UHGV virus genome: UHGV-1430915
Strand: one strand, 5' to 3'
From: a virus
DNA length: 64,000 nt
In this document: one piece after another, positions 1-64,000 of the stretch
Position numbering within the stretch: position 1 is the stretch's first letter
How the letters are laid out: the number at the start of each line of letters is the position of its first letter
Notes under the pieces: model-generated
What the model saw: only the letters and a program-made list of their open reading frames with translations
Database searches by the model: none
What the model was told of the DNA's origin: nothing
Made by a program: the position numbers and the translations under genes

Positions 1-536
1 GTAACCGCTTTACCAGAATTGGGTGAAGGGAAATGTGTGGTTATTTCAGCCTTAATTCCCTGAAGATCCTCAAAAGCCCCAATGTCTGTCTCAACAAACC
101 TTACGTTAAATGTCAGCATTACGGTAGCTCTATTTTCATACGTCTGCTTATTCAACGGCACCCTTTGAGGTGAAATTGTTGAATTGTTAGAGTAGGCAAA
201 GCACGATCCCAGAGGGAAATACTTGTCATAAAACATTGGAAGGTTTATTGCTTGCAATACTCTGCTAAGTGCAGCATATGCCCTGCCGCGATAAGCTGTT
301 AACAGATAAGTAACAGTATAACTGTGGGTGACGTAAGCATTACCCTCCGCATCTTGAAACTCATTATCTTCCCAAGTGGTGGGATTGATCGCCAGGGTTT
401 GCAAAAGTACAAACTCACCTTCCGGCTTCGGTATGGTAGAGCTTTCTGCCAGAACTACAGTTCTTCCTGTGGCAACCTTGACAAGCTTAGCGATGGTTGT
501 TTCAAGATCAGAAAAAACTTTTTCGAAAGCTTCCAT
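1..536 (-). CDS. hypothetical virion-module protein, partial (N-terminal part; continues past window start)
   Basis: ATG at 536 overlaps upstream stop as ATGA; frame MEAFEKVFSDLETTIAKLVKV... translated by hand over ~60 codons without a stop; remainder to position 1 not fully checked. Confidence 0.4.
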   Translation of the reverse strand, partial: MEAFEKVFSDLETTIAKLVKVATGRTVVLAESSTIPKPEGEFVLLQTLAINPTTWEDNEFQDAEGNAYVTHSYTVTYLLTAYRGRAYAALSRVLQAINLPMFYDKYFPLGSCFAYSNNSTISPQRVPLNKQTYENRATVMLTFNVRFVETDIGAFEDLQGIKAEITTHFPSPNSGKAV

Positions 537-961
537 CAGTTTTCTCCTTCAGGCTCTTCTACCACAAAAAATCTATATCTTCCACCACCAGACGTGACAT
601 AAGAATCGCATTTTAAAACGGTAAACCACTTCAGGTCACCACGGATGTCAGGCAGTTGAATTTGATCAGCCATTGCATATGTTCCTTCGTCTGGACTATA
701 CAACTTGGTTGAGGAGTAAACTGTAAAAGCCTCGTATTGTCTGTCACCTTCAGGATTTATCTGGGAGGAGTAATCTTTAGCTGCCCTTCCTGTCAACGGC
801 TGCACAACACACTCTAAGACATCAAACTCTTCATACTCAAGTTCTAACCCCTCGTTAGCAAAAGGACCACCAACTGTTTTGTTATACACTCTGTGGCGAC
901 CTTTGAATGTTTTACGAGGTATTAGCCTGTTCTTTCCTATCAGCTTATAACCTGCTGCCAC
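536..961 (-). CDS. hypothetical protein, head-completion/neck region
   Basis: 141-aa ORF, co-oriented and tightly packed downstream of capsid genes; no recognisable motif. Confidence 0.55.
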   Translation of the reverse strand: MAAGYKLIGKNRLIPRKTFKGRHRVYNKTVGGPFANEGLELEYEEFDVLECVVQPLTGRAAKDYSSQINPEGDRQYEAFTVYSSTKLYSPDEGTYAMADQIQLPDIRGDLKWFTVLKCDSYVTSGGGRYRFFVVEEPEGEN

Positions 962-977
962 TCAACCCCCTTATTTT

Positions 978-1448
978 TTACTGTCCAATTTTAAAGGTTG
1001 CAGATTCAAGCAGCACATCGTAATGCCGCATAGCCTCGTTGAAGCCCTTCTCTTGTGCCCACTGCTCACTAACAGTAGGGTTACTAAACTGACCAGCCTC
1101 AATAACAAACTGGATAGCTTTGGCCCCTGTGTCCCCCATCTGCCTAAGAACAGCCTCTGCACTTGATCCTCTAGCCATAGCTCTCAACAATTTTTCTGTT
1201 AAGGTCTGCAGTTGCGTGCTGTGAAATGCAAAGGCCGTCTCCATGAAATTGCGAACAGGCAGCCCGTTCCAACCGAAGTTGTGAATAGCTGCCAATGTTG
1301 CCATATTTAAGCCTGACGGGTGAGGTTCATCATAAAAGCCGTAGGTTATTGTTTTGCTTTCAAGTTTCACAAGGTCTTTATAAAAGCGATCTAAACGCTT
1401 TAGGTTGAACCTTGTTTGACATTTAACCTTTAGCATTATATTCCTCAC
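978..1448 (-). CDS. hypothetical protein, head-completion/neck region
   Basis: 156-aa ORF in structural operon; no recognisable motif. Confidence 0.55.
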   Translation of the reverse strand: MRNIMLKVKCQTRFNLKRLDRFYKDLVKLESKTITYGFYDEPHPSGLNMATLAAIHNFGWNGLPVRNFMETAFAFHSTQLQTLTEKLLRAMARGSSAEAVLRQMGDTGAKAIQFVIEAGQFSNPTVSEQWAQEKGFNEAMRHYDVLLESATFKIGQ

Positions 1449-1489
1449 TAATGTATTTTACCACAAAGATACATCAAAAGCAACAATTT

Positions 1490-2110
1490 TTAAAAACTGC
1501 GTTTGCGTCTTGGGTGGCGAGGAGGTTGATTATTTAGACCACTAATAGGTGTAATCCCCTGAACATCGAACGGGCCGTTACTGTTTTCATTAAATTTAAC
1601 CCGAATTCCTTCGTCTACACGAACACCGCCAATGATAATCATTCTGCTATAAGCATCTAGCTCAGAGTCTACATAATCTGGGTGTGCCAGCAGCCAATCA
1701 AGAAAATCTTTCCACTGAGCGTAGGAAGATCCACCACGAATCTCTATGGTCTCATCACCTATTTTTTCCAGACGAGAAGTTATACTTGCATTACCGCTGG
1801 AAACTTCCTGCATCATCAGCCACCGCACAAGCTGCACAAGCACATTGTACTTAAGCAGGGGTAGCTTATCAGGGTCTGCCGGATAATTTAGTTTCAGCTT
1901 CTCCATGTCAAGGAATGTTTTAATTACCTCATCAGGGAGTGTTTCCTCATCAACATTGCCAAGCAATAACCTCATAATATCGATAAGAGGTTGGTCTGGA
2001 TCAGGTTCCGGAGGCACAGGATCTTCTTTTGGTGGTTCTTCTGGGGTATCGACTACACCATCATGGTTAGGCGGTGACGGGATAATCTCTTCATCTTCAT
2101 ACCATGCCAT
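1490..2110 (-). CDS. hypothetical acidic Pro/Glu-rich structural-module protein
   Basis: ORF track 1490..2167; start moved to ATG at 2110 (MAWYEDEE...) because 2122-2159 forms a terminator hairpin. Confidence 0.5.
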   Translation of the reverse strand: MAWYEDEEIIPSPPNHDGVVDTPEEPPKEDPVPPEPDPDQPLIDIMRLLLGNVDEETLPDEVIKTFLDMEKLKLNYPADPDKLPLLKYNVLVQLVRWLMMQEVSSGNASITSRLEKIGDETIEIRGGSSYAQWKDFLDWLLAHPDYVDSELDAYSRMIIIGGVRVDEGIRVKFNENSNGPFDVQGITPISGLNNQPPRHPRRKRSF

Positions 2111-2121
2111 TTGAAAATACC

Positions 2122-2159
2122 TCGTAAAAATAAAGCCCCATTCCTGATTTGGAAGGGGC
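2122..2159 (-). terminator. intrinsic terminator
   Basis: minus-strand hairpin GCCCC(T)TCC/GGAA-TGGGGC followed by TTTATTTTTA. Confidence 0.5.
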
Positions 2160-2169
2160 CTTAACAAAA

Positions 2170-3024
2170 TTATGCCAGTGCAGCCTCAAAATCTTTCATC
2201 ATATTTTGGAAAGTTTTTGCCTTACTTAAGGTAACACCGTGCTCTTTAGCGAAGGTTTGGAGTGCATCTTTCGAACCACTCTTGTCATCTTCGTTGTTAA
2301 GAGCTGCGGCTTGCTGCAGTATGGCATCAACATCGCCGTGAGAAGATCTTGATTCTTGTGCCTGTTCAGGATCCTGCTCAGTACCTTCCGTACCCTCCGG
2401 TGCGGTCGGACCTGGTGATTCCTCACTGCCACCACCAGGTTCAGTAGGGCCTACAGGTGGCTCCGGCTCTGGTTCAGGTTCTGGGGCTACTGTAGAAGTC
2501 AGCCCAAGATTTACAACCTGAGAACGTTTCTTAGGCCACTCAATGGTGAAAGTCTGGGTATCTTCTGCATAAGCAACATCGCATTGCTCATCGTTTATGG
2601 TCACTTTTTTAGGCATCCCTTCAGGGTCCCACAGATGGCCCTCTGCCACTGAAACTTTGAAAGCGGCATCTACCTCTTTAAACACTGACGGGGTGAGTGT
2701 GATATTGACATCACCGCTTTGCAGTGTTAAAGTGCTTTCATCAAGGTTCTCTGTGAAGAACAGAAGAATAACACCCATACGGATAGTTGAAATACCAGTA
2801 TCAATTGGCAGACCTGTGTGTTTTGCAATCTTCTCGAAGAAGTCTACAATCGTTCTGCATGGATAGTGAACACTGCCAATAACGAACTCTGTTGGTGGCA
2901 GCAGGGCTGATAAACCAACATTGATTTCTGGATTGTATTGTGCTAAAAATTGATAAAAACTTAACTGATTGTTGAAAACTCTTAATAGAGGATCATACTC
3001 GACTGGATATACGGCTCTCTTCAC
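2170..3024 (-). CDS. hypothetical structural protein with PEPEPEPEPP linker
   Basis: 284-aa ORF between two terminators; GTG start preceded by AGGAG; Pro-Glu repeat linker. Confidence 0.55.
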   Translation of the reverse strand: MKRAVYPVEYDPLLRVFNNQLSFYQFLAQYNPEINVGLSALLPPTEFVIGSVHYPCRTIVDFFEKIAKHTGLPIDTGISTIRMGVILLFFTENLDESTLTLQSGDVNITLTPSVFKEVDAAFKVSVAEGHLWDPEGMPKKVTINDEQCDVAYAEDTQTFTIEWPKKRSQVVNLGLTSTVAPEPEPEPEPPVGPTEPGGGSEESPGPTAPEGTEGTEQDPEQAQESRSSHGDVDAILQQAAALNNEDDKSGSKDALQTFAKEHGVTLSKAKTFQNMMKDFEAALA

Positions 3025-3044
3025 GGGACACTCCTGTTAAACCC

Positions 3045-3081
3045 TAATAAATAAAAAGGGGAGGGGGAGAACCCCCTCCCC
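3045..3081 (-). terminator. strong intrinsic terminator after major capsid gene
   Basis: perfect 10-bp stem GGGGAGGGGG/CCCCCTCCCC, 4-nt loop, then TTTTTATTTATT on minus strand. Confidence 0.75.
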
Positions 3082-3105
3082 ATATGGGATGAATCACCTT
3101 AGTGA

Positions 3106-4113
3106 TTAGTCACCTTTCAGAGTTGCTTTAACAACCAGCTCTGGGCGGGTGTTAACTGCCAGCATTGAAGTTTCAGATTCAATCTTCTCTTCACGCAGGT
3201 ATGCAGAGTGTTTATACCACATGTACAGTTCCTGTGCAGGGGTATTTGCTTCGTTAACATCATCTGCCGGAGCAAAGTGCAGCTGGAACATCTGATCAAT
3301 ACCCATCGGCAGGATGCGAGCCTCTTTCTTAGGAATATTGCCAGAGATATCTTCGATAAAGGTGATACCTTTATGTTCAAACACACGGTATACGCTGTCT
3401 TGACCGCCAGCACCCAGACGGCGACGCAGAGGTTCCTGAGCAGAGCCGTAATAGGTGTATGCCAGTTCTACCAGTGGGTGATGGGTAATAGCACTGAAGA
3501 ACTCCGGTGAGCACAGAGCTACAATACGATAGCCAGCTGCGTTATCGCCAGCTTGCAGCGCGATGTGCAGACGAGCCTCTTCCAGAACCTCCATAGGATC
3601 CTGATCTGCTTTTGCAGGGTCAATCTCAACAGATTTCTGTTCAACACCCCACAGAGTGTAGTAGTCATACTGACAGGTGGTGTCACCAGGTGCATAGGAT
3701 TTACCCAGAATAGCCTGGAACAGTGCTTTCTCACGCAGTGCTTCATGAGAAACACGGATACGGCGAACAACGCGGGTTACTACGTCCTGAACAGTTTTCG
3801 GAGCATCCGGGGTGAAGTAACGACGGAAGTTCTGAACATCTGCGGCAGTGATGCCTTTGTCCAGAGGGAAGAACGGGATGTTCAGGTTTTTAACCTGGGC
3901 ACGTTCACTACCAACGTAGTTACGCTCACCGCCACGACGGCGTGCCGGAATGTCGGTTACAACTTCATCAACACGCTCGATCTGAGCAATTGTTGAGGTG
4001 CCGAGACGGGTTTCGAACAGATCCATACCAGTAATCAGTCGGAATTGGCGCGGAACAAGTTCCAGAGTAGCACCTAAATCAACAATGCCAAATTCATCTT
4101 TACGAGTAATCAT
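3106..4113 (-). CDS. major capsid protein (lambda gpE-like by size and gene order)
   Basis: 335 aa; follows scaffold and decoration genes; followed by strong terminator; order terminase-portal-scaffold-decoration-capsid as in lambda. Confidence 0.7.
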   Translation of the reverse strand: MITRKDEFGIVDLGATLELVPRQFRLITGMDLFETRLGTSTIAQIERVDEVVTDIPARRRGGERNYVGSERAQVKNLNIPFFPLDKGITAADVQNFRRYFTPDAPKTVQDVVTRVVRRIRVSHEALREKALFQAILGKSYAPGDTTCQYDYYTLWGVEQKSVEIDPAKADQDPMEVLEEARLHIALQAGDNAAGYRIVALCSPEFFSAITHHPLVELAYTYYGSAQEPLRRRLGAGGQDSVYRVFEHKGITFIEDISGNIPKKEARILPMGIDQMFQLHFAPADDVNEANTPAQELYMWYKHSAYLREEKIESETSMLAVNTRPELVVKATLKGD

Positions 4114-4160
4114 TTATTTCTCCAAAGTAAAACTTAAATATTTCCCGAACAATTTAGGGC

Positions 4161-4550
4161 TTACTCATCACCAAGGGTCTGGACTTGAACCTTGTTACCC
4201 AGAGCCTCAAGCTTGTCTAACACAGCCTGTGCTGCTTTAGCGCCACCAGTTGCCAGCAATTTATCCTTGGCAAAAGTAACACCACGCACAGCAACAACCA
4301 GTTTATATTTCTTTGTGCCAAGAGGTTCAGCGATATGCACTTTACCAGCGGAGTCTGGAATTAAAGCACGATCCACCAGAACGCCGTAAGCGTCTGAACC
4401 GTCCTGATTGGCAATGCTACCATCTTTGGTCACAACCGTGCCAGCGTGGTGATGCTCTGTCAGTGTAATTTCCATCTCTTTAAAATTGTAGCCAGCATCG
4501 CTAGAATCAACTTTGCCGAGCACGATATCAGAATATTGAGTGGTAATCAT
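4161..4550 (-). CDS. putative head decoration protein
   Basis: 129-aa ORF immediately upstream of major capsid gene (lambda gpD position). Confidence 0.45.
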   Translation of the reverse strand: MITTQYSDIVLGKVDSSDAGYNFKEMEITLTEHHHAGTVVTKDGSIANQDGSDAYGVLVDRALIPDSAGKVHIAEPLGTKKYKLVVAVRGVTFAKDKLLATGGAKAAQAVLDKLEALGNKVQVQTLGDE

Positions 4551-4570
4551 TTATTTCCCCCGTTAATGTC

Positions 4571-5548
4571 TTATTTGGCAGATTCTGCACGTGCACGAGC
4601 AAGTGCTTTTGCAACGTTTTCAGCAAGAACTTCTTCTGCGGATTTTGCAATATCATCCACAACAGGTTCGCCATCATTACCATGTTCAGTGGTGGCAAAC
4701 TCTTCTTTGGTTTTATGCACCTCTGCTTCCAGCTCTTTAATTTTGGCTTGAGCTTTCTCCAGCATAGCTACGATAGGTTCGTTAGCTTTTTCCAGCATGA
4801 AGTCAACCAGGGTTGCATGATCTTCTTCACCAACAAAGCTTAAAGCTTGAGCTTTAGCCAGCATTTTAGCTTTTTCAACTTCAACCTGGGCCTTGATGAT
4901 TTCTTCAGCTTTACTCTGGGTTGCTTTCAGCTCTTCTACTTGCTTCAGCAGATCCAGATACTCTTTAGTTTTGGTTACGTCCACCGGATTCTCCTCGGTA
5001 TTTGCGGATTTTGCAACATCATCCACCTCGGTAGTTTTATCCACCTCAGCAGGTTCCTGTACCGCCTTGATCAGGTTCCCTTCTTTATCGAAGAGATCAG
5101 CGGTTACTTGTTCAAAAATCTGTTGTGTTTTTAACAGACTGTACTGATCTACCACGCTAAGCTGCTTGCCTTCTTTTGCAGCTTTATGAATGGTCACGTT
5201 ATCACAACGCTCTTCCAGCCATGCAATGCAAGACTCTGCGTCAGCTTGCGCCCATTCCCAATCAGGATGCTCTTTAGCCCAAGCTTCCTCTTCAATCTCA
5301 AAACCAAGCATGTGTGCGAGTGCTTTGGCATCGTCATACCACATATCGAAGAAACGACGCAGGTATTCTTCAAAACTCAGCTCCACAGTAACTTGGCGAA
5401 GTGCCTTAACAATATCGTCTGTTAACTGCTCAGGCTGGAGATCACTCTTCATCAAAAGAGATACAGGTCTGTTGTTAGCGCTATAGCCTTGCGCCTTATG
5501 GCACAGGGCAATCCCCTTCTCTTTAATAGTGATTGTTTTTTCAGACAT
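4571..5548 (-). CDS. putative scaffolding protein
   Basis: 325 aa, E/K/A-rich predicted coiled coil; sits between portal and capsid genes. Confidence 0.5.
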   Translation of the reverse strand: MSEKTITIKEKGIALCHKAQGYSANNRPVSLLMKSDLQPEQLTDDIVKALRQVTVELSFEEYLRRFFDMWYDDAKALAHMLGFEIEEEAWAKEHPDWEWAQADAESCIAWLEERCDNVTIHKAAKEGKQLSVVDQYSLLKTQQIFEQVTADLFDKEGNLIKAVQEPAEVDKTTEVDDVAKSANTEENPVDVTKTKEYLDLLKQVEELKATQSKAEEIIKAQVEVEKAKMLAKAQALSFVGEEDHATLVDFMLEKANEPIVAMLEKAQAKIKELEAEVHKTKEEFATTEHGNDGEPVVDDIAKSAEEVLAENVAKALARARAESAK

Positions 5549-6123
5549 TATTCATTGCCCTCTTCTACAACACTGATCCCGAAATTTACGTTGGTAATTT
5601 CGCCCGTCTCTTCATCAACATTACCTGTTGCCTGAATGCTTAGGCCACCAACAATGCCAGCCTTCTTAGCTTCCCATAATTCAGGATTATTGTATTTAAC
5701 TTTAGCAACCCAAGAGCCAGCCTTGATGACCTGCTCAGTACCAATTACTACAACATCAAACTCTTCTTGAATCCACGTCTTTTCAATGGTGAAAGCATCT
5801 GTGGAGGTCAAGTGGAAAAGGTTTTCAGAAACTAGGCCTGCGGCGTATGCTGCGTCCCAATTATCTTTAGCCTTTTTGATGGTGTCTTTACTCATCCACT
5901 CACCGTGAGCATCTTTAGTGTCAGGTTCGTAGATGATTTCGTAGGAAATCATTTCTTCCTGTGGCATCTTATTCCCCATGTGGATTATTTTATCACGCCA
6001 AAGGAGGTTTTGCAACCCCCTGTGTTGATAATTTTTAATTTTCCATGTTAGATATGGAATTATCTCTGGTCGATGACATCTTAGAAGTGCCGTTGCCAGT
6101 GGATCCTGCAGCCATACCATCAC
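5548..6123 (-). CDS. head morphogenesis protein (possible prohead protease or core protein); start uncertain
   Basis: ORF between portal and scaffold; track start overlaps portal by 88 nt, alternative ATG at 5979; stop overlaps scaffold start. Confidence 0.4.
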   Translation of the reverse strand: MMVWLQDPLATALLRCHRPEIIPYLTWKIKNYQHRGLQNLLWRDKIIHMGNKMPQEEMISYEIIYEPDTKDAHGEWMSKDTIKKAKDNWDAAYAAGLVSENLFHLTSTDAFTIEKTWIQEEFDVVVIGTEQVIKAGSWVAKVKYNNPELWEAKKAGIVGGLSIQATGNVDEETGEITNVNFGISVVEEGNE

Positions 6124-7591
6124 CAGCCCTGCTGATGTCCTGGCCCAAGAGCTTCATCAGCTCTTCCTGATCCATGTCTTCGTCAAATCTTTCATCAAAC
6201 CCGCCTACCTCAAGAATCTTATTAATTACTGCAGGAGTTTTTGGCAAGTAACCTACAGCACCGATCCTCTGGACAAACTTGGAGAAGCTCTCCATGTCCA
6301 CTTCTTCAATCAGACCAGGTTTCAGTTTAGGCATATCATCATCTTCAAGGATGATACCATTCAATGCCAGAAGCTGTGGAATAAGATCTTTATTGAAGGC
6401 CTCAGTGATAATATCTATATCACGCTGAACAAAATGACCATGAATGGACTGTTTTGACTCAGACAGAGAGAAGGATCCGACGTTATCGTTACCGAGGTTA
6501 ATAAATCCAGCACCGAAACGGTCAAGAATCGCCTTCTTACGGGCATCAATCAAATCTTTAGTAGAATACTGCTTACCCATACCATCAACCCCCTTCAGGG
6601 TCATGGAGTAAAGCTCTTTACCAGACTTATCTCTATCAGACGGAAGTATAAAGAAACTTTGCTCCCCACTATGGGCGTTTGCTGCGTCCAACATAAGATC
6701 TGCAACCATTCTCCCTTCCATCGAATTCGGGTCAATGCTGGCCTTGTTCAAAATATTGGAAGGAATTTTCAGCTCAAGCACACCACCAAGGTCTTTGGAG
6801 CAGCCAACAACCTCAAGGTTTTCAATCAAAACTTTCTCACGGAAAGATCTGTAGCAACCTATCATCGGTGACACACCTGCAGGATTAGATTCTGTTCCTG
6901 ACAGAGTCATGAGCATAAGCTTTTTAGCAGGGATGAAAATTTCAGGCTCATTAAAGCCTTTTGAAGGCATTGCAGCGAGAGGTCCAGCCCAGCGTGCATT
7001 CTGAGTGTTTAGAAATGCATTAGGTGACTGATAAATACCTGTCAGTGTTCTGCTATTCTTGTCAAAGACAAACGGCTCTGATCTGGACAAACTGGCCTGT
7101 GGTCGGAATGCAATTTTATCAATAAGAAGCATCCCGGCATATTTACCTTCTTTCTCTCTGCGGTATACTTTCTCAAACAGTGAAAAACCATACTCGTTAA
7201 AGGTAGCTGCGCTTCTTGCAATATCTCGAAGAGTTTGTTGGTTTGCCAAATTACGCAAAGAATACTCTATAAGCTCGGCGGCTTTCTTAGAGTCTTCACT
7301 TTTAACATTATAAAGGATCTTAAAATCATTGAATGCTTTCGTGATGAAAACATATTTTGTATCTAAGGCAGTAGCAACTGTGGAATCACATTTCATAGTC
7401 TCCACTGTGGCAATCAGCTGAGGCCAACGCAATTCCTCAACCATCATAGATTGTGATTCTGCCATAATTTGGGAAAGTGCGCCAGAACCGATCTCACTCA
7501 TACGAACATTATGAGTTGGTGCGCCTGCGTTCCCAGATTTATTCACAGTTTTGGCTGTGGCGTTGTGTTTCCTGCGGTTCTTTTTGGACAC
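6035..7591 (-). CDS. portal protein
   Basis: 518-aa ORF directly downstream of large terminase. Confidence 0.65.
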   Translation of the reverse strand: MSKKNRRKHNATAKTVNKSGNAGAPTHNVRMSEIGSGALSQIMAESQSMMVEELRWPQLIATVETMKCDSTVATALDTKYVFITKAFNDFKILYNVKSEDSKKAAELIEYSLRNLANQQTLRDIARSAATFNEYGFSLFEKVYRREKEGKYAGMLLIDKIAFRPQASLSRSEPFVFDKNSRTLTGIYQSPNAFLNTQNARWAGPLAAMPSKGFNEPEIFIPAKKLMLMTLSGTESNPAGVSPMIGCYRSFREKVLIENLEVVGCSKDLGGVLELKIPSNILNKASIDPNSMEGRMVADLMLDAANAHSGEQSFFILPSDRDKSGKELYSMTLKGVDGMGKQYSTKDLIDARKKAILDRFGAGFINLGNDNVGSFSLSESKQSIHGHFVQRDIDIITEAFNKDLIPQLLALNGIILEDDDMPKLKPGLIEEVDMESFSKFVQRIGAVGYLPKTPAVINKILEVGGFDERFDEDMDQEELMKLLGQDISRAGDGMAAGSTGNGTSKMSSTRDNSISNMEN

Positions 7592-7693
7592 AAGCTTTAC
7601 CCCTCAAAACAGTATAACAAAATAGCCCTCGTGTCAGAGGGCTAGTATCTCCGATTACTCTATTCTACCACATCTAATTAAGATTGGCAACAC

Positions 7694-9241
7694 TTAGATA
7701 AAACGCTTGAACATAGAAGGTGATGAGATTGATGGAATCACACAAGGCAGCGCTACCTCCTCTTTCTCCAGGAAATTAATCGCAGAAGCTACACAGTCGG
7801 CCCAGTCGTCTTTTCTGTTAAATGTTGATCTTTCCCCGTTGAACTTTTCAAGTTCAGTCAGAAATGCTTCCAGAGTGTCAGGATGGAAACTGGATTTTAC
7901 AATCCTCACCATTCCTTGTTGGGCAAGATTGGCAAAAGGTGAGAACCTTGTCAGTTTAGATTTGTTGGAAGGCATTGGATCTTCTTCAACCCTGAACCCT
8001 TCGGCGAGCAAGGATCTGGACGAGGTTAAGAATTCACTCTTACCTGCCTGACCGGGGTCCACAGAAAATACGATTATGCAATCATCTCCATCAAACTGCG
8101 CCTGTTTCCTGATGATCACATCTCGTTCCCCAGCCTTTTTACAGAACTTGCCTTCCAGACCTGTGGAATACCTACCGTCATCCACGTTCTCAGGACAATA
8201 ATCCCCGGACAGGTAATAAAAGCCGTCGCTATCTTTACTTACCTTAACACTGGCGGTAAAGTCAGGAAATTTATTACCGGAAGTTCTCTCGGTTCCTGCC
8301 TTATCCCATGCCCTGCAAGATACTGATCCAAGAGGTACTCTATCGGCATCCCGAAGGAAAGATCTTTGGAAATAGTTTGCACCTTCAGGTTTGGCAAACC
8401 AGTTGCCATGAAGAAGCTGGGCTTTTTCAAGCTCGGGCAGACCTTCAAGGAAAGCAAGGTATTCTGGGTTGTCTCTCAAGCAGACAGGATTATCGAAAAT
8501 TGTTGCGCCTATAAACGAGAATGACAACGGTCTTGGCTTGATCTCCACACCCAGTCCGTTAACCGTGGTGTATTTCTCTATTAACTCCTCTTTAGAGTCT
8601 CCCCAGATAAACTCACCGTCGCGTCGGATAAAATATCTTTTCTTACCACATTTCTCCGGGTCTGGATACCCTTCATCGTCCAACCACCACCTAACCAGTT
8701 TGGCAAGCATGTGTTCTGAGTCTGGGTTACAGCTGATAACCATTCTTGATGGATACTTTGACTGAGATCGCAGACGAGACATCAAATAGTCTATCTGCTC
8801 CCATTCGAATTGCGTGCCTTCATCGAAGCAAACCATGGTGTACTCAAGGCCTTGATGGTTAAGCTTATCTTGGACATACTCCATGTGGCAGTATTTTACA
8901 ACGGCCCCTTTTTTGCTCCTGTCCCACTTGCCAGTGCTCGGATCAAACCGTGGAAAAATAAACTTATGATCCTTCTCTCTGAACTTTGGTTTAATGTTTT
9001 CAGGCAGATCACTGTAAATAGCTACTGCTTTAGGCCATAGACCACCCTCACCTTCCAACTGTGGAGTTGTTCTTCGGAACATAACCACAGAGCTGTGCGG
9101 GTCATCAATAATTTTAAGCGGCATTAGCTGCAAGAGGAACGACTTGCCAGACCCAGCTGCACCTCCGATCACCAAAATATCTGCATCGTTCTCTAGGATC
9201 ATCTTCTGCTTTTCAGAACACGGTCCGTAAATCTTAGACAT
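7694..9241 (-). CDS. terminase large subunit
   Basis: Walker A VIGGAAGSGKS near N-terminus, Walker B-like MVCFDEGTQ, C-terminal acidic nuclease-like region; 515 aa. Confidence 0.85.
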   Translation of the reverse strand: MSKIYGPCSEKQKMILENDADILVIGGAAGSGKSFLLQLMPLKIIDDPHSSVVMFRRTTPQLEGEGGLWPKAVAIYSDLPENIKPKFREKDHKFIFPRFDPSTGKWDRSKKGAVVKYCHMEYVQDKLNHQGLEYTMVCFDEGTQFEWEQIDYLMSRLRSQSKYPSRMVISCNPDSEHMLAKLVRWWLDDEGYPDPEKCGKKRYFIRRDGEFIWGDSKEELIEKYTTVNGLGVEIKPRPLSFSFIGATIFDNPVCLRDNPEYLAFLEGLPELEKAQLLHGNWFAKPEGANYFQRSFLRDADRVPLGSVSCRAWDKAGTERTSGNKFPDFTASVKVSKDSDGFYYLSGDYCPENVDDGRYSTGLEGKFCKKAGERDVIIRKQAQFDGDDCIIVFSVDPGQAGKSEFLTSSRSLLAEGFRVEEDPMPSNKSKLTRFSPFANLAQQGMVRIVKSSFHPDTLEAFLTELEKFNGERSTFNRKDDWADCVASAINFLEKEEVALPCVIPSISSPSMFKRFI

Positions 9242-9528
9242 TAACCTCTCTCCTTTGGAAACAGTGTTCTTATATAGTCTTGCAAAATGATCAATTTAGC
9301 TCTATCATTACTACAAGACAGGTTATTATCCCTCATAATGCCAGAATTCACCGCATCTGGCGCACCTTTCTTCAAAGGGATAGCTTTAGCAGGTGGTTTC
9401 ATAGCACCCTCGGGAGGTTTAACAATCAACCTTCCTACATCCGGAGGGTCAATCTTGTATTCTCTCTCAACGCTGGTTGCACACCCACACAATAACAAGC
9501 ACAAAACAACCAGTGCAGTAACTCTCAT
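9241..9528 (-). CDS. o-spanin (Rz1-like outer-membrane lipoprotein)
   Basis: signal peptide with lipobox-like LLLCGCA, Pro-rich mature region, C-terminal ERG as in lambda Rz1; ATGA overlap with preceding i-spanin; stop overlaps terminase start. Confidence 0.6.
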   Translation of the reverse strand: MRVTALVVLCLLLCGCATSVEREYKIDPPDVGRLIVKPPEGAMKPPAKAIPLKKGAPDAVNSGIMRDNNLSCSNDRAKLIILQDYIRTLFPKERG

Positions 9529-24225: not shown

Positions 24226-24705
24226 TTGTCAGAAGAGCAGGATGGTCTTGATCCAATCTTGTGCGAACCACTTCGTAAGCCTTGTTTAGATCATGATCAT
24301 CTGACTGGTCGTTGCAGGGGTGTTTTGTCCCAATGCACTAATACCTTTGAGGGGTATGTGCTTAAATACTGGATGAAATACTGTAACGAGTATACAGATT
24401 GCAGTTTATCAGAGGCGTTACGCAGGATGGCTGACTATCTGGAGAAAGACTACAGCGACTTCCCGCTCCACAAAAACTACAGAGATGATATGACAAAGTT
24501 CTTGAGGAGATGCTCTAAAGCTACGATTATTGCACGTGCAGAATCAGATCTCGGTCTTGTCATTAATTCAGAGTATACCAAGCATGAGGCTATTGAGTCC
24601 TACATGCAGGAGTTTATAAAGAAAACTGAGGAGAGAGATTTCTATGGGGACGAAAAAGGTATTCAATCCTTGCGATTCAGTTCTGATCAGGATGAAATAC
24701 CGTAA
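24226..24705 (+). CDS. recombination endonuclease VII-like protein
   Basis: PCLDHDHLTGRCRGVLSQCTN resembles T4 endo VII zinc/HDH motif. Confidence 0.55.
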   Translation: MSEEQDGLDPILCEPLRKPCLDHDHLTGRCRGVLSQCTNTFEGYVLKYWMKYCNEYTDCSLSEALRRMADYLEKDYSDFPLHKNYRDDMTKFLRRCSKATIIARAESDLGLVINSEYTKHEAIESYMQEFIKKTEERDFYGDEKGIQSLRFSSDQDEIP

Positions 24706-58805: not shown

Positions 58806-58850
58806 GATCATTGCTCCTTTTTGCACTGATTATTTTAACAGGGTTTAAAT

Positions 58851-58894
58851 TTACTTTATTGATGGCCCTGGAGTCAAGGCCATCTAAAAATAAA
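58851..58894. repeat. 44-bp intergenic repeat, copy 1
   Basis: ttactttattGATGGCCctggagtcaaGGCCATCtaaaaataaa; 7-bp inverted repeat; TTGACT on minus strand in loop. Confidence 0.85.
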
Positions 58895-58896
58895 TT

Positions 58897-59097
58897 TTAC
58901 AGATCTACAATCTCTTTAATTCGTTTTACTGCTGCCTCAGCGCCTTGAGGGTAGAAATTATGATAACCAATCACGCGGGTAATACTGATCGCCGCTTGGT
59001 GGTCCTCGTAGTCGCCTTTGAATATTTCTTGACCATCAACCAGCACAGCAATTTTTTCTTCTTTTTTGAAGTTAATAACGCGGATATTGTTGCTCAT
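58897..59097 (-). CDS. hypothetical protein
   Basis: 66 aa; leader hairpin GGGGAG-tgt-CTCCCC. Confidence 0.5.
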   Translation of the reverse strand: MSNNIRVINFKKEEKIAVLVDGQEIFKGDYEDHQAAISITRVIGYHNFYPQGAEAAVKRIKEIVDL

Positions 59098-61130: not shown

Positions 61131-61149
61131 TCTTTGTTAGTGGCGGGAA
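61131..61149 (-). promoter_or_regulatory. conserved 5'-leader hairpin GGCGGGAA-N4-TTCCCGCC
   Basis: perfect 7-8 bp stem just downstream of predicted transcription start; near-identical copy at 63661-63679, partial copy at 62983-62995. Confidence 0.5.
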
Positions 61150-61159
61150 GTTTTCCCGC

Positions 61160-61187
61160 CTGTGTGTTTAATTATACTTATTGAGAT
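61160..61187 (-). promoter_or_regulatory. sigma70-like promoter
   Basis: minus strand TTGACA-16 nt-TATAAT. Confidence 0.65.
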
Positions 61188-61448
61188 TTACTTGTCAACA
61201 CTATTTTTTAAATTATTGTGGCGCAAAATGTTTAAAATCTCTTCAACGTCATCAACACGGCGGCAATTTTTAAACGCTACCAATTGCCCCATGATTTTAA
61301 TCACTGGGCGGCCTTGCCAGTGCCCTTGGAGAAAGCGCGCCTTGACTTTATCGGTGGAACTATCACGCCACCAAATAGCCTTGTTGTTGCAGTAGTAAAA
61401 ATTATTCAGGATAACATCAACTTTATCAAAATTTTTTAATTTACGCAT
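61188..61448 (-). CDS. hypothetical protein
   Basis: 86-aa ORF with promoter at 61481-61509. Confidence 0.5.
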   Translation of the reverse strand: MRKLKNFDKVDVILNNFYYCNNKAIWWRDSSTDKVKARFLQGHWQGRPVIKIMGQLVAFKNCRRVDDVEEILNILRHNNLKNSVDK

Positions 61449-61666: not shown

Positions 61667-61864
61667 TTATTTGTCTTTATGGCGGTATCGTTCTGCCTGT
61701 CGTTCACGTTCCAAAAGTAGGCCGGGCAATTTACGATCATAATGATTACGCCAGATCTTCCCAAACCTTTTTGGCTTATTCAGTTTATTGTTACGCTGGC
61801 GGCGTTCTGGCAGCTCTTCGGAATCATGAGGGCGCTTTACAATTTTCTCGAAATTAATTTTCAT
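61667..61864 (-). CDS. small highly basic protein
   Basis: start set at ATG 61864 after GGGGG; Arg/Lys-rich. Confidence 0.5.
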   Translation of the reverse strand: MKINFEKIVKRPHDSEELPERRQRNNKLNKPKRFGKIWRNHYDRKLPGLLLERERQAERYRHKDK

Positions 61865-62207: not shown

Positions 62208-62283
62208 GTGTACTTTCTCCTTTCATGGTGTTAATAAATTATCTTTATAGATGGCCCTGCAACCAGGACCACCGAAAAAATAA

Positions 62284-62529
62284 CTATTTCACAATGCCTA
62301 CAAAACAGATCCCACCTTCACCTATGTAAGCAATATCGGTAACTTTATAATTTGTCAAGATCTGTTTATTTAGTTCATTAATAAAATCGGTCATTGCGTT
62401 GGTGTAGTTGTCTTCCATATCTAAGGCATAATCCCAGGCGTAAACCTTTTTACGTCCGAAGCCTTTTACCATGATACGGGCGCTTTTGGTGTTGGTGGGC
62501 GCATAATATTTGGTGATTAGTGCTGCCAT
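62284..62529 (-). CDS. hypothetical protein
   Basis: 81-aa ORF downstream of repeat copy 2, GAGGAG RBS. Confidence 0.5.
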   Translation of the reverse strand: MAALITKYYAPTNTKSARIMVKGFGRKKVYAWDYALDMEDNYTNAMTDFINELNKQILTNYKVTDIAYIGEGGICFVGIVK

Positions 62530-62570
62530 GGTTTTAACTCCTCATTAGTTCAGTGTTAACAGTGTAAAGT

Positions 62571-62614
62571 TTACTTTATTGATGGCCCTGGAGTCAAGGC
62601 CATCTAAAAATAAA
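62571..62614. repeat. 44-bp intergenic repeat, copy 2
   Basis: identical to 58851-58894. Confidence 0.85.
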
Positions 62615-62615
62615 T

Positions 62616-62957
62616 TTACTCGTTTTCTTCCAGCTCTGAAAGCTCTTCTTTCACTTCTTCGAGCTCTGTCTGCAATTCTTGGTACTCTTCATCGTCCTCA
62701 ATATCCAGGCTGTCGATGTAGTCGCTAAATCCGCAGCGGTAAGCGATAGGATCTAGCTCCTTGAGGATACGCGACGGAAGAAAAGAAATGTTTCCGATCA
62801 TAATTTCGCCGTAGATCTCGTCTAACCATTCATCATAGTTTTCGTCGTACTTGTCCTCGTCGATTTCAAAGTTATCGATCTTGTTCTCAAGGTCTGCGAT
62901 CTGTTTTTTCAGCGCGGCGATCTGCATAGCTTTTTCTGCGGCGGTCATAGTAGTCAT
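62616..62957 (-). CDS. highly acidic coiled-coil protein (candidate DNA mimic)
   Basis: 113 aa, very Asp/Glu-rich C-terminal half. Confidence 0.55.
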   Translation of the reverse strand: MTTMTAAEKAMQIAALKKQIADLENKIDNFEIDEDKYDENYDEWLDEIYGEIMIGNISFLPSRILKELDPIAYRCGFSDYIDSLDIEDDEEYQELQTELEEVKEELSELEENE

Positions 62958-63008
62958 GGTGTTTTCTCCTTTTGTGTGTTCTGGGAAGTTTTCCCGTTTA
63001 CGTGTTTA

Positions 63009-63036
63009 AGTATACCGATTTGGGTTAGCTTGTCAA
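63009..63036 (-). promoter_or_regulatory. sigma70-like promoter
   Basis: minus strand TTGACA-16 nt-TATACT; followed by leader hairpin 62983-62995. Confidence 0.6.
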
Positions 63037-63191
63037 TTAAAAATTTAAGAAAAATTTTGCAAAACTGTTGGCGCTACTCATTAACATTTGCGCCAGGATG
63101 TAACCGACAACGCAAACGATAATAGTTACCTTTGTGTATTGGCGTGTAGTGCTCATCTTAAAGCCCCCTTTTTCGCTTAACTGAGATTAGT

Positions 63192-63235
63192 TTACTTTAT
63201 TGATGGCCCTGGAGTCAAGGCCATCTAAAAATAAA
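63192..63235. repeat. 44-bp intergenic repeat, copy 3
   Basis: identical core to 58851-58894. Confidence 0.85.
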
Positions 63236-63236
63236 C

Positions 63237-63641
63237 TTAGTAAGTTTTCAGTACTTTCCCGTCCAACCTGTCAAGCTGGATCTCGATAGCTGCAGAAAAC
63301 CTATTGTACACCACGTCGCCCATGGAATCCAACCAGTCTATGACGTTATACACTTGCTCTTTGTTCTTGCAGGTCCGGATCCGTTTCATGATGTAAGCCG
63401 GATCAATATTGGTGCTCTCGTTGGTGCTCCCCTGTACCTGGTTTGCCGTATTAGTCACATCTTTAATGGCCTTTACCACCACCTGGAAGGGCTTTAAGGT
63501 GCCTTTTGCGTTCATCTCACGCGCTTTTGCGGCGCGGTTGTTATAGGTTACACAACGGCGGCAAATGTTCACCAAATGCATGTCAATAATTTTTTCATCG
63601 TTTGCCAGTTCGTTCATGATGCGGCGTACGTTCTTATTCAT
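63237..63641 (-). CDS. hypothetical protein
   Basis: 134-aa ORF with promoter and leader hairpin. Confidence 0.55.
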   Translation of the reverse strand: MNKNVRRIMNELANDEKIIDMHLVNICRRCVTYNNRAAKAREMNAKGTLKPFQVVVKAIKDVTNTANQVQGSTNESTNIDPAYIMKRIRTCKNKEQVYNVIDWLDSMGDVVYNRFSAAIEIQLDRLDGKVLKTY

Positions 63642-63660: not shown

Positions 63661-63679
63661 GGCGGGAAACATTCCCGCC
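63661..63679 (-). promoter_or_regulatory. conserved 5'-leader hairpin GGCGGGAA-N4-TTCCCGCC
   Basis: second copy of the hairpin at 61131-61149. Confidence 0.5.
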
Positions 63680-63689
63680 TTTTGTGACT

Positions 63690-63717
63690 AGTTTACTTGA
63701 ATTTTGCAGCGTGTCAA
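63690..63717 (-). promoter_or_regulatory. sigma70-like promoter (weaker -10)
   Basis: minus strand TTGACA-16 nt-TAAACT. Confidence 0.45.
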
Positions 63718-63722
63718 CAATT

Positions 63723-63966
63723 TTTATTCGTGGGCGCATGTTACAATGTGCTTTTTATAGCCCAGGTGGTTAGCAAGTGCCGACAAAAACTCTTCTTCAT
63801 AGATCCAGCCGTTGGCAGTGATCCCCATAGCATTTAATGCGCTCTCAAGTGCTGCATTAGCTTTATCGTAGCCGTGACCGCTCGCCTTCCCGCCAGTATA
63901 ACCGTACTTATTGTTCTTGTTGTCGTGAATCCAAAAAACGCAGTATTGAGTGTTCCCGCTGGCGGC
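63723..63966 (-). CDS. hypothetical protein, partial (C-terminal part; 5' end lost at contig end)
   Basis: open frame on minus strand from adapter junction down to TAA at 63723-63725 (...GHGYDKANAALESALNAMGITANGWIYEEEF...). Confidence 0.4.
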
Positions 63967-64000
63967 AGATCGGAAGAGCGTCGTGTAGGGAAAGAGTGTA
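63967..64000. other. Illumina TruSeq adapter (sequencing artifact, not biological)
   Basis: agatcggaagagcgtcgtgtagggaaagagtgta matches the standard adapter AGATCGGAAGAGCGTCGTGTAGGGAAAGAGTGT. Confidence 0.95.

Follow-up and report, generated by a model that had tools for sequence, protein, structure and literature searches.

Does the phage genome end at position 63966 of this stretch? The window (the whole stretch of DNA that was analysed, 64,000 nt) closes with 34 bases of adapter sequence, which cut off a gene on the minus strand. The preliminary description had offered two readings of this junction, either an assembly breakpoint or a physical or packaging terminus, and had suggested that a repeat-rich region nearby bears on where the genome ends. 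We propose that the 34-nt end is very probably adapter that was left on an opened circular assembly, which would make it a technical artefact and not the end of the genome.

The window corresponds to bases 71187-135186 of contig Ga0495776_073149 (135,186 bp) from the JGI metagenome 3300045988. By megablast against 50,697 phage records, it belongs to an rV5/FV3-like Vequintavirus, which is a myovirus of E. coli, and its closest relative at the right end is ECP2303 (98.2% identity). Genomes in this group are about 135-140 kb. We also noticed that ~16-17 records of "Campylobacter phage" (host C. jejuni) show 92-97% identity to this E. coli Vequintavirus in the regions that were compared. These records, among them MG065635, MG065647, MG065654, MG065661, MG065662, MG065666, MG065672, MG065674, MG065677, and MG065690, are probably mislabelled, or else they are coliphages that were carried along in the preparations.

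The adapter and the gene at the junction

The features at the right end of the window are:

63724 to 63966, minus strand: 3' part of a gene for a 132-aa hypothetical protein (80 codons and the stop, 243 nt; phrog_7028, no Pfam match)
63928 to 63966: 39-nt stretch shared by the two contig ends (its other copy is record bases 1-39), where the circle is opened and the adapter branch departs
63967 to 64000, plus strand: TruSeq adapter, non-biological, at the 3' end of contig Ga0495776_073149

We read the last 34 letters of the window directly. They are AGATCGGAAGAGCGTCGTGTAGGGAAAGAGTGTA, which is identical to the TruSeq adapter at 34 of 34 positions, just as had been described, and when both strands were searched this was the sole copy in the window. 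(The chance expectation for a given 34-mer is ~4e-16 in 2 x 64,000 positions.) AGATCGGAAGAGCGTCGTGTAGGGAAAGAGTGTA is the Illumina TruSeq Read-2 read-through sequence, which is the reverse complement of the universal (P5) arm, and its leading A is the A-tail base. Up to the junction the window reads ...GTGTTCCCGCTGGCGGC, and then AGATCGGAAGAGCGTCGTGTAGGGAAAGAGTGTA. The junction itself is GCTGGCGGC followed by AGATCGGAAG, and its counterpart without the adapter is GCTGGCGGC followed by GGCATAATAC. When Vequintavirus relatives were aligned to this region, all of the alignments reached window position 63966 (query base 2967) and none of them went further. The exact 30-mer across the junction had no match among the viral contigs of IMG/VR.

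The same adapter sequence is present in seven other GenBank phage records, and in four of the seven it lies within ~300 nt of the end of the record. Because these phages have different, unrelated hosts, it must be a technical sequence, as nothing else would be shared in this way. TruSeq adapter in phage records is a known class of contamination. The records with the adapter near their end are OU509537.1, OR360270.1, OQ703102.1, and PQ571273.1. Internal copies are found in KT254133.1 (59297-59330), MW202825.1 (6021-6053), and PQ462667.1 (7573-7605), and in two of these three records the adapter lies under an annotated CDS ("hypothetical protein" and "endonuclease"), which suggests chimeric joins.

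The minus-strand ORF next to the adapter has its stop codon at 63724-63726. It had been described as running from 63723 to 63966 without a start codon and as being cut off by the junction; the missing start and the cut are as stated, but the coordinate is one base off and should be 63724. The corresponding position in the relatives is within a 399-nt gene that encodes a conserved hypothetical protein of 132 amino acids, and the window holds the C-terminal 80 of these 132 residues. A search of the full protein against PHROGs placed it in phrog_7028, a family of unknown function, and a search against Pfam found no family. The metagenome's own gene call at this position (L007 2-277, which is window 63724-63999 on the minus strand) reads through the adapter, and its 91-aa product starts with the adapter-encoded peptide TLFPYTTLFRS. 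This chimeric entry is present in public protein clusters.

Closure of the circle and a second adapter tip

At position 64000 the contig itself ends, and not only the window, as the reverse complement of L007 (the end of Ga0495776_073149) matches the tail of the window with 0 mismatches in 10,764 bases. At the other end of this contig, bases 1-39 are identical to window 63928-63966, and after base 39 the contig runs on with GGCATAATACCGGATCTC..., which is the missing part of the cut gene (156 nt or 52 codons, bases 40-195). The rejoined ORF is intact, with 132 amino acids, and is identical to the copy in a sister contig from the same metagenome (Ga0495776_073147). The statement that the adapter truncates a gene is thus correct for the linear contig only; in the phage, the ORF is restored on joining.

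Once the adapter is removed, the join is seamless. Given the overlap of the ends and this seamless rejoining, Ga0495776_073149 is a closed circle of 135,113 bp (135,186 - 34 - 39) with no sequence missing. An independent MEGAHIT contig from ENA (ERZ27229786 k119_158274) gives a circle of the same size (135,232 - 119 = 135,113 bp). The first of the two proposed readings, an assembly breakpoint or adapter contamination, is borne out by the start of the contig, which spans the junction into the rest of the gene. The preliminary description had taken continuation of the sequence past 63966 as the mark of simple adapter contamination, and at the level of the assembly we see this continuation, with contig bases 1-39 spanning the junction.

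Other assemblies agree. Across the 10,730 bases that lead to 63966, the sister contig and the ENA contig each match the window at 100.000% identity, and both read through this position. The start of Ga0495776_073149 (bases 1-10968; L013) matches the sister contig with 0 mismatches in 10,968 bases, and the sister and ENA contigs (L003 and L004) show no difference in any of the 20,405 bases that were compared. We also used a 600-nt probe centred on the junction, which gave one uninterrupted match in each of 116 related deposited records (116/116), and none of these relatives' records begins or ends at 63966. An end at 63966 is therefore not reproduced by two other assemblies of the identical strain or by any of the 116 relatives, all of which are continuous there. 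A search of metagenome contigs with the 40 nt beyond the junction found only two relatives (CYGL01000682 and UADI01000001), and no contig of JGI 3300045988. In an exact-sequence index, a rarely called 93-aa ORF that lies 650-930 bases past the junction (P0016) occurs on only two contigs, both from JGI 3300045988.

The JGI metagenome holds two separate genome-length contigs of one phage, and Ga0495776_073147 and k119_158274 come from different archives and assemblers. Since there are two genome-length contigs of one phage, and since the contigs are identical across archives, this "metagenome" looks like a pool of libraries that were assembled separately, and the same strain or data may have been deposited twice (at JGI and at ENA).

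The sister contig has an adapter tip of its own. It starts with 25 nt, GTTCAGACGTGTGCTCTTCCGATCT (L015 1-25), which are fused inside a gene for a MoxR-like ATPase; GTTCAGACGTGTGCTCTTCCGATCT is the end of the other TruSeq arm (the indexed or Read-2-primer arm). The main junction is at base 24662 of the sister contig, or 24.6 kb from this tip, and the sequences at the two tips are unrelated. Two tips in one phage from one sample, at unrelated positions within genes, imply that adapter tips land arbitrarily in this dataset. The pattern is one of incomplete adapter trimming and not of a defined terminus. We also considered whether the junctions of Ga0495776_073149 and Ga0495776_073147 could be the two termini of a single linear molecule, one left and one right. 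This is ruled out, because the tips have the same polarity and are 24.6 kb apart. The truncated ATPase left by the sister contig's tip (P0146, 309 amino acids of a 394-aa protein) has been entered in a protein collection.

How might such a contig arise? The contig's layout is that expected from a circular assembly graph, here of 135,113 bp, in which one side branch has survived. A short library fragment with its insert ending by chance at 63966 probably gave some untrimmed Read-2 sequences that continued into the adapter, and this read-through would create a short side branch (or tip) in the graph. The assembler could then have cut the circle where this branch departs and output a linear contig, whose path would lead from the 39 bases before the branch, through the whole genome once, to the same 39 bases again and out along the 34-nt adapter branch. 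The tip might stop at 34 nt where the adapter's constant part gives way to differing index bases, or it might join other paths through adapter sequence at that point.

Two points count against this account of an artefact. First, the terminal overlaps (39 nt here, and ~42 nt for the sister contig, as inferred from 135,180 - 135,113 - 25) fit no single standard k-mer size. Second, a tip that survives the cleaning of the graph may be backed by more than just a few reads. That fragment ends are truly over-represented at 63966 appears very unlikely.

Repeats and neighbouring genes of the early region

The repeat-rich region near the junction consists of two kinds of elements, all of them on the minus strand like the genes: a 63-nt element, and a set of promoters with hairpins. 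These elements and the nearest complete gene are:

58836-58898, 62225-62287, 62556-62618, and 63177-63239, minus strand: four copies of the 63-nt intergenic element, with 60-90% identity to the reference copy
61133-61198 and 62971-63036, minus strand: second family, consensus TTGACA-16-TATAAT with a GGCGGGAA..TTCCCGCC hairpin; a similar arrangement at 63661-63717
63237-63641, minus strand: last complete gene of the window (134 aa), 325 nt inside the junction
63661-63679, minus strand: GGCGGGAA...TTCCCGCC hairpin, in the intergenic space that separates the cut gene from its neighbour
63717-63690, minus strand: sigma70-like promoter TTGACA-16-TAAACT, in the same intergenic space

The 63-nt element contains the hairpin GGCCCTGGAGTCAAGGCC, and a promoter-like site (TTGACT-18-TAAACT, minus strand) overlaps it. 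We considered these repeats as terminal or packaging repeats and rejected this, as they are sigma70-like promoters, on the same strand as the genes, together with GC-rich hairpins, and are spread through the early region. The repeats are ordinary regulatory architecture of the early region and unrelated to the ends of the genome, which removes the proposed link between this region and a genome end. The 134-aa gene is found at one place only on Ga0495776_073149.

Some other features of this region deserve mention. According to precomputed annotation, a 65-aa early protein (window 61667-61864, minus strand) matches the Pfam family Phage_T7_1_1 (PF08200), which makes it a small protein like that of T7 gene 1.1 within an rV5-like phage. 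About 2.7 kb past the junction, a 63-aa protein (L003 6824-7015) belongs to a 90%-identity cluster that includes proteins from the T4-like Krischvirus (RB49, Phi1, and JK32). The shared cluster shows that Vequintavirus and Krischvirus have recently exchanged this small early gene. Nearer to the junction, at the start of the source contig, is a gene-poor stretch of ~950 bp (L012 9550-10500, which is 270-1220 bases past the junction). It contains three copies of a direct repeat of 47-55 nt with a spacing of 65-74 nt (9697-9882) and further short repeats, and a search of the non-coding stretch past the junction against Rfam found no match. Gene-free "wastelands" are reported for rV5 (PMC8785237). 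The repeats in the gene-poor stretch of our phage could be origin-like or iteron-like.

Possible physical ends and comparison with known systems

Contigs that end in adapter can mark physical ends in ligation-based libraries, and pac sites are usually in or beside the terminase genes (as in P22, SPP1, P1, and Sf6), although this rule is not absolute. The terminase of this phage is in the window:

7694-9241: T4-type TerL (Terminase_6N/6C), adjoining the portal and major capsid genes

It is very unlikely, in our judgement, that 63966 is a preferred end of the virion DNA, either as the first pac cut of a headful series or as the boundary of a short terminal repeat, with the piled-up ends breaking the assembly. 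This would account for the survival of the adapter tip through assembly and for the opening of the circle exactly at 63966. There is also a precedent in the subfamily, as a direct terminal repeat (DTR) of 514 bp has been reported for Klebsiella phage KPP-1, the sole such member of the Vequintavirinae that we cite (PMC9862379). But a DTR should appear as a repeat of tens to thousands of bp, longer than the assembler's k-mer, at both ends of the contig, and the ends share 39 nt only. A pac site should lie near the terminase, and the junction is ~54.7 kb from TerL, inside a small gene in a block of small early genes. The sister contig from the same sample was opened 24.6 kb away by a tip of the same polarity, which fits neither a pair of ends nor a single pac site. 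The reading through 63966 by the ENA assembly of the identical strain, and the lack of any record that begins or ends there among the 116 relatives, also argue against a preferred end. Finally, rV5 and other E. coli Vequintavirus are described as lacking fixed termini: rV5 is circularly permuted (PMC3606486), bovine Vequintavirus isolates were classified as "circular permutated" by PhageTerm (PMC8407724), and headful packaging with partial permutation was reported for another isolate (PMC13211470). The terminus suggested by the preliminary description is not supported by these results.

A somewhat more specific proposal, that an over-represented virion end at 63966 arises from (for example) an unrecognised packaging-initiation cut far from the terminase genes, seems to us slightly less probable still. 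If it were true, then packaging series would have a defined start in a group that is regarded as randomly permuted. Equally improbable is that 63966 is a fragile or nicked site (a site-specific nick, a modification-dependent break, or a shearing hot spot) rather than a packaging terminus: the survival of the adapter tip is the one observation in its favour, and against it, the junction (GCTGGCGGC followed by GGCATAAT) showed neither a palindrome nor a repeat nor any motif that we recognise, the sister's tip is in unrelated sequence, and the other assemblies have no break at 63966.

If the adapter was left on an opened circular assembly, as we propose, then this contig end has no biological significance, and its use is in quality control. 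The contig should be trimmed of the 34 nt of adapter and of the 39-nt overlap, which leaves a complete, circular, permuted genome of 135,113 bp, and the "partial" gene calls at its two original ends should be joined to give one gene of 132 amino acids. Artefact entries in protein collections, such as the TLFPYTTLFRS product and the 309-aa ATPase fragment, can mislead homology searches, and they can also mislead automated calls of termini or of completeness.

Among known systems, phages with fixed termini and a DTR (T7-type or T5-type, or KPP-1) can give rise to contig ends that are capped by adapter, as seen here. This contig differs from them in that it has no repeat of DTR size, its end is not reproducible between assemblies, and no deposited relative ends here. 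It resembles the linearised circular assemblies of permuted headful phages (such as rV5, with a T4-type terminase): the contig is of genome length and has identical ends of 39 nt, its TerL is T4-like, and assemblies of the same strain were opened at different places. The difference from these is that, in place of a clean k-mer overlap, the shared stretch here runs on into 34 nt of adapter, which is not genomic. The end itself resembles TruSeq contamination of the class that is flagged by NCBI VecScreen or FCS-adaptor, with an exact adapter after an A-tail base at the extreme end of a contig, homology that stops at the junction, and flanking genome that is otherwise normal. It differs from the usual case in nothing essential; its one special trait is that a circular assembly was opened exactly at the tip, so that a gene appears to be truncated.
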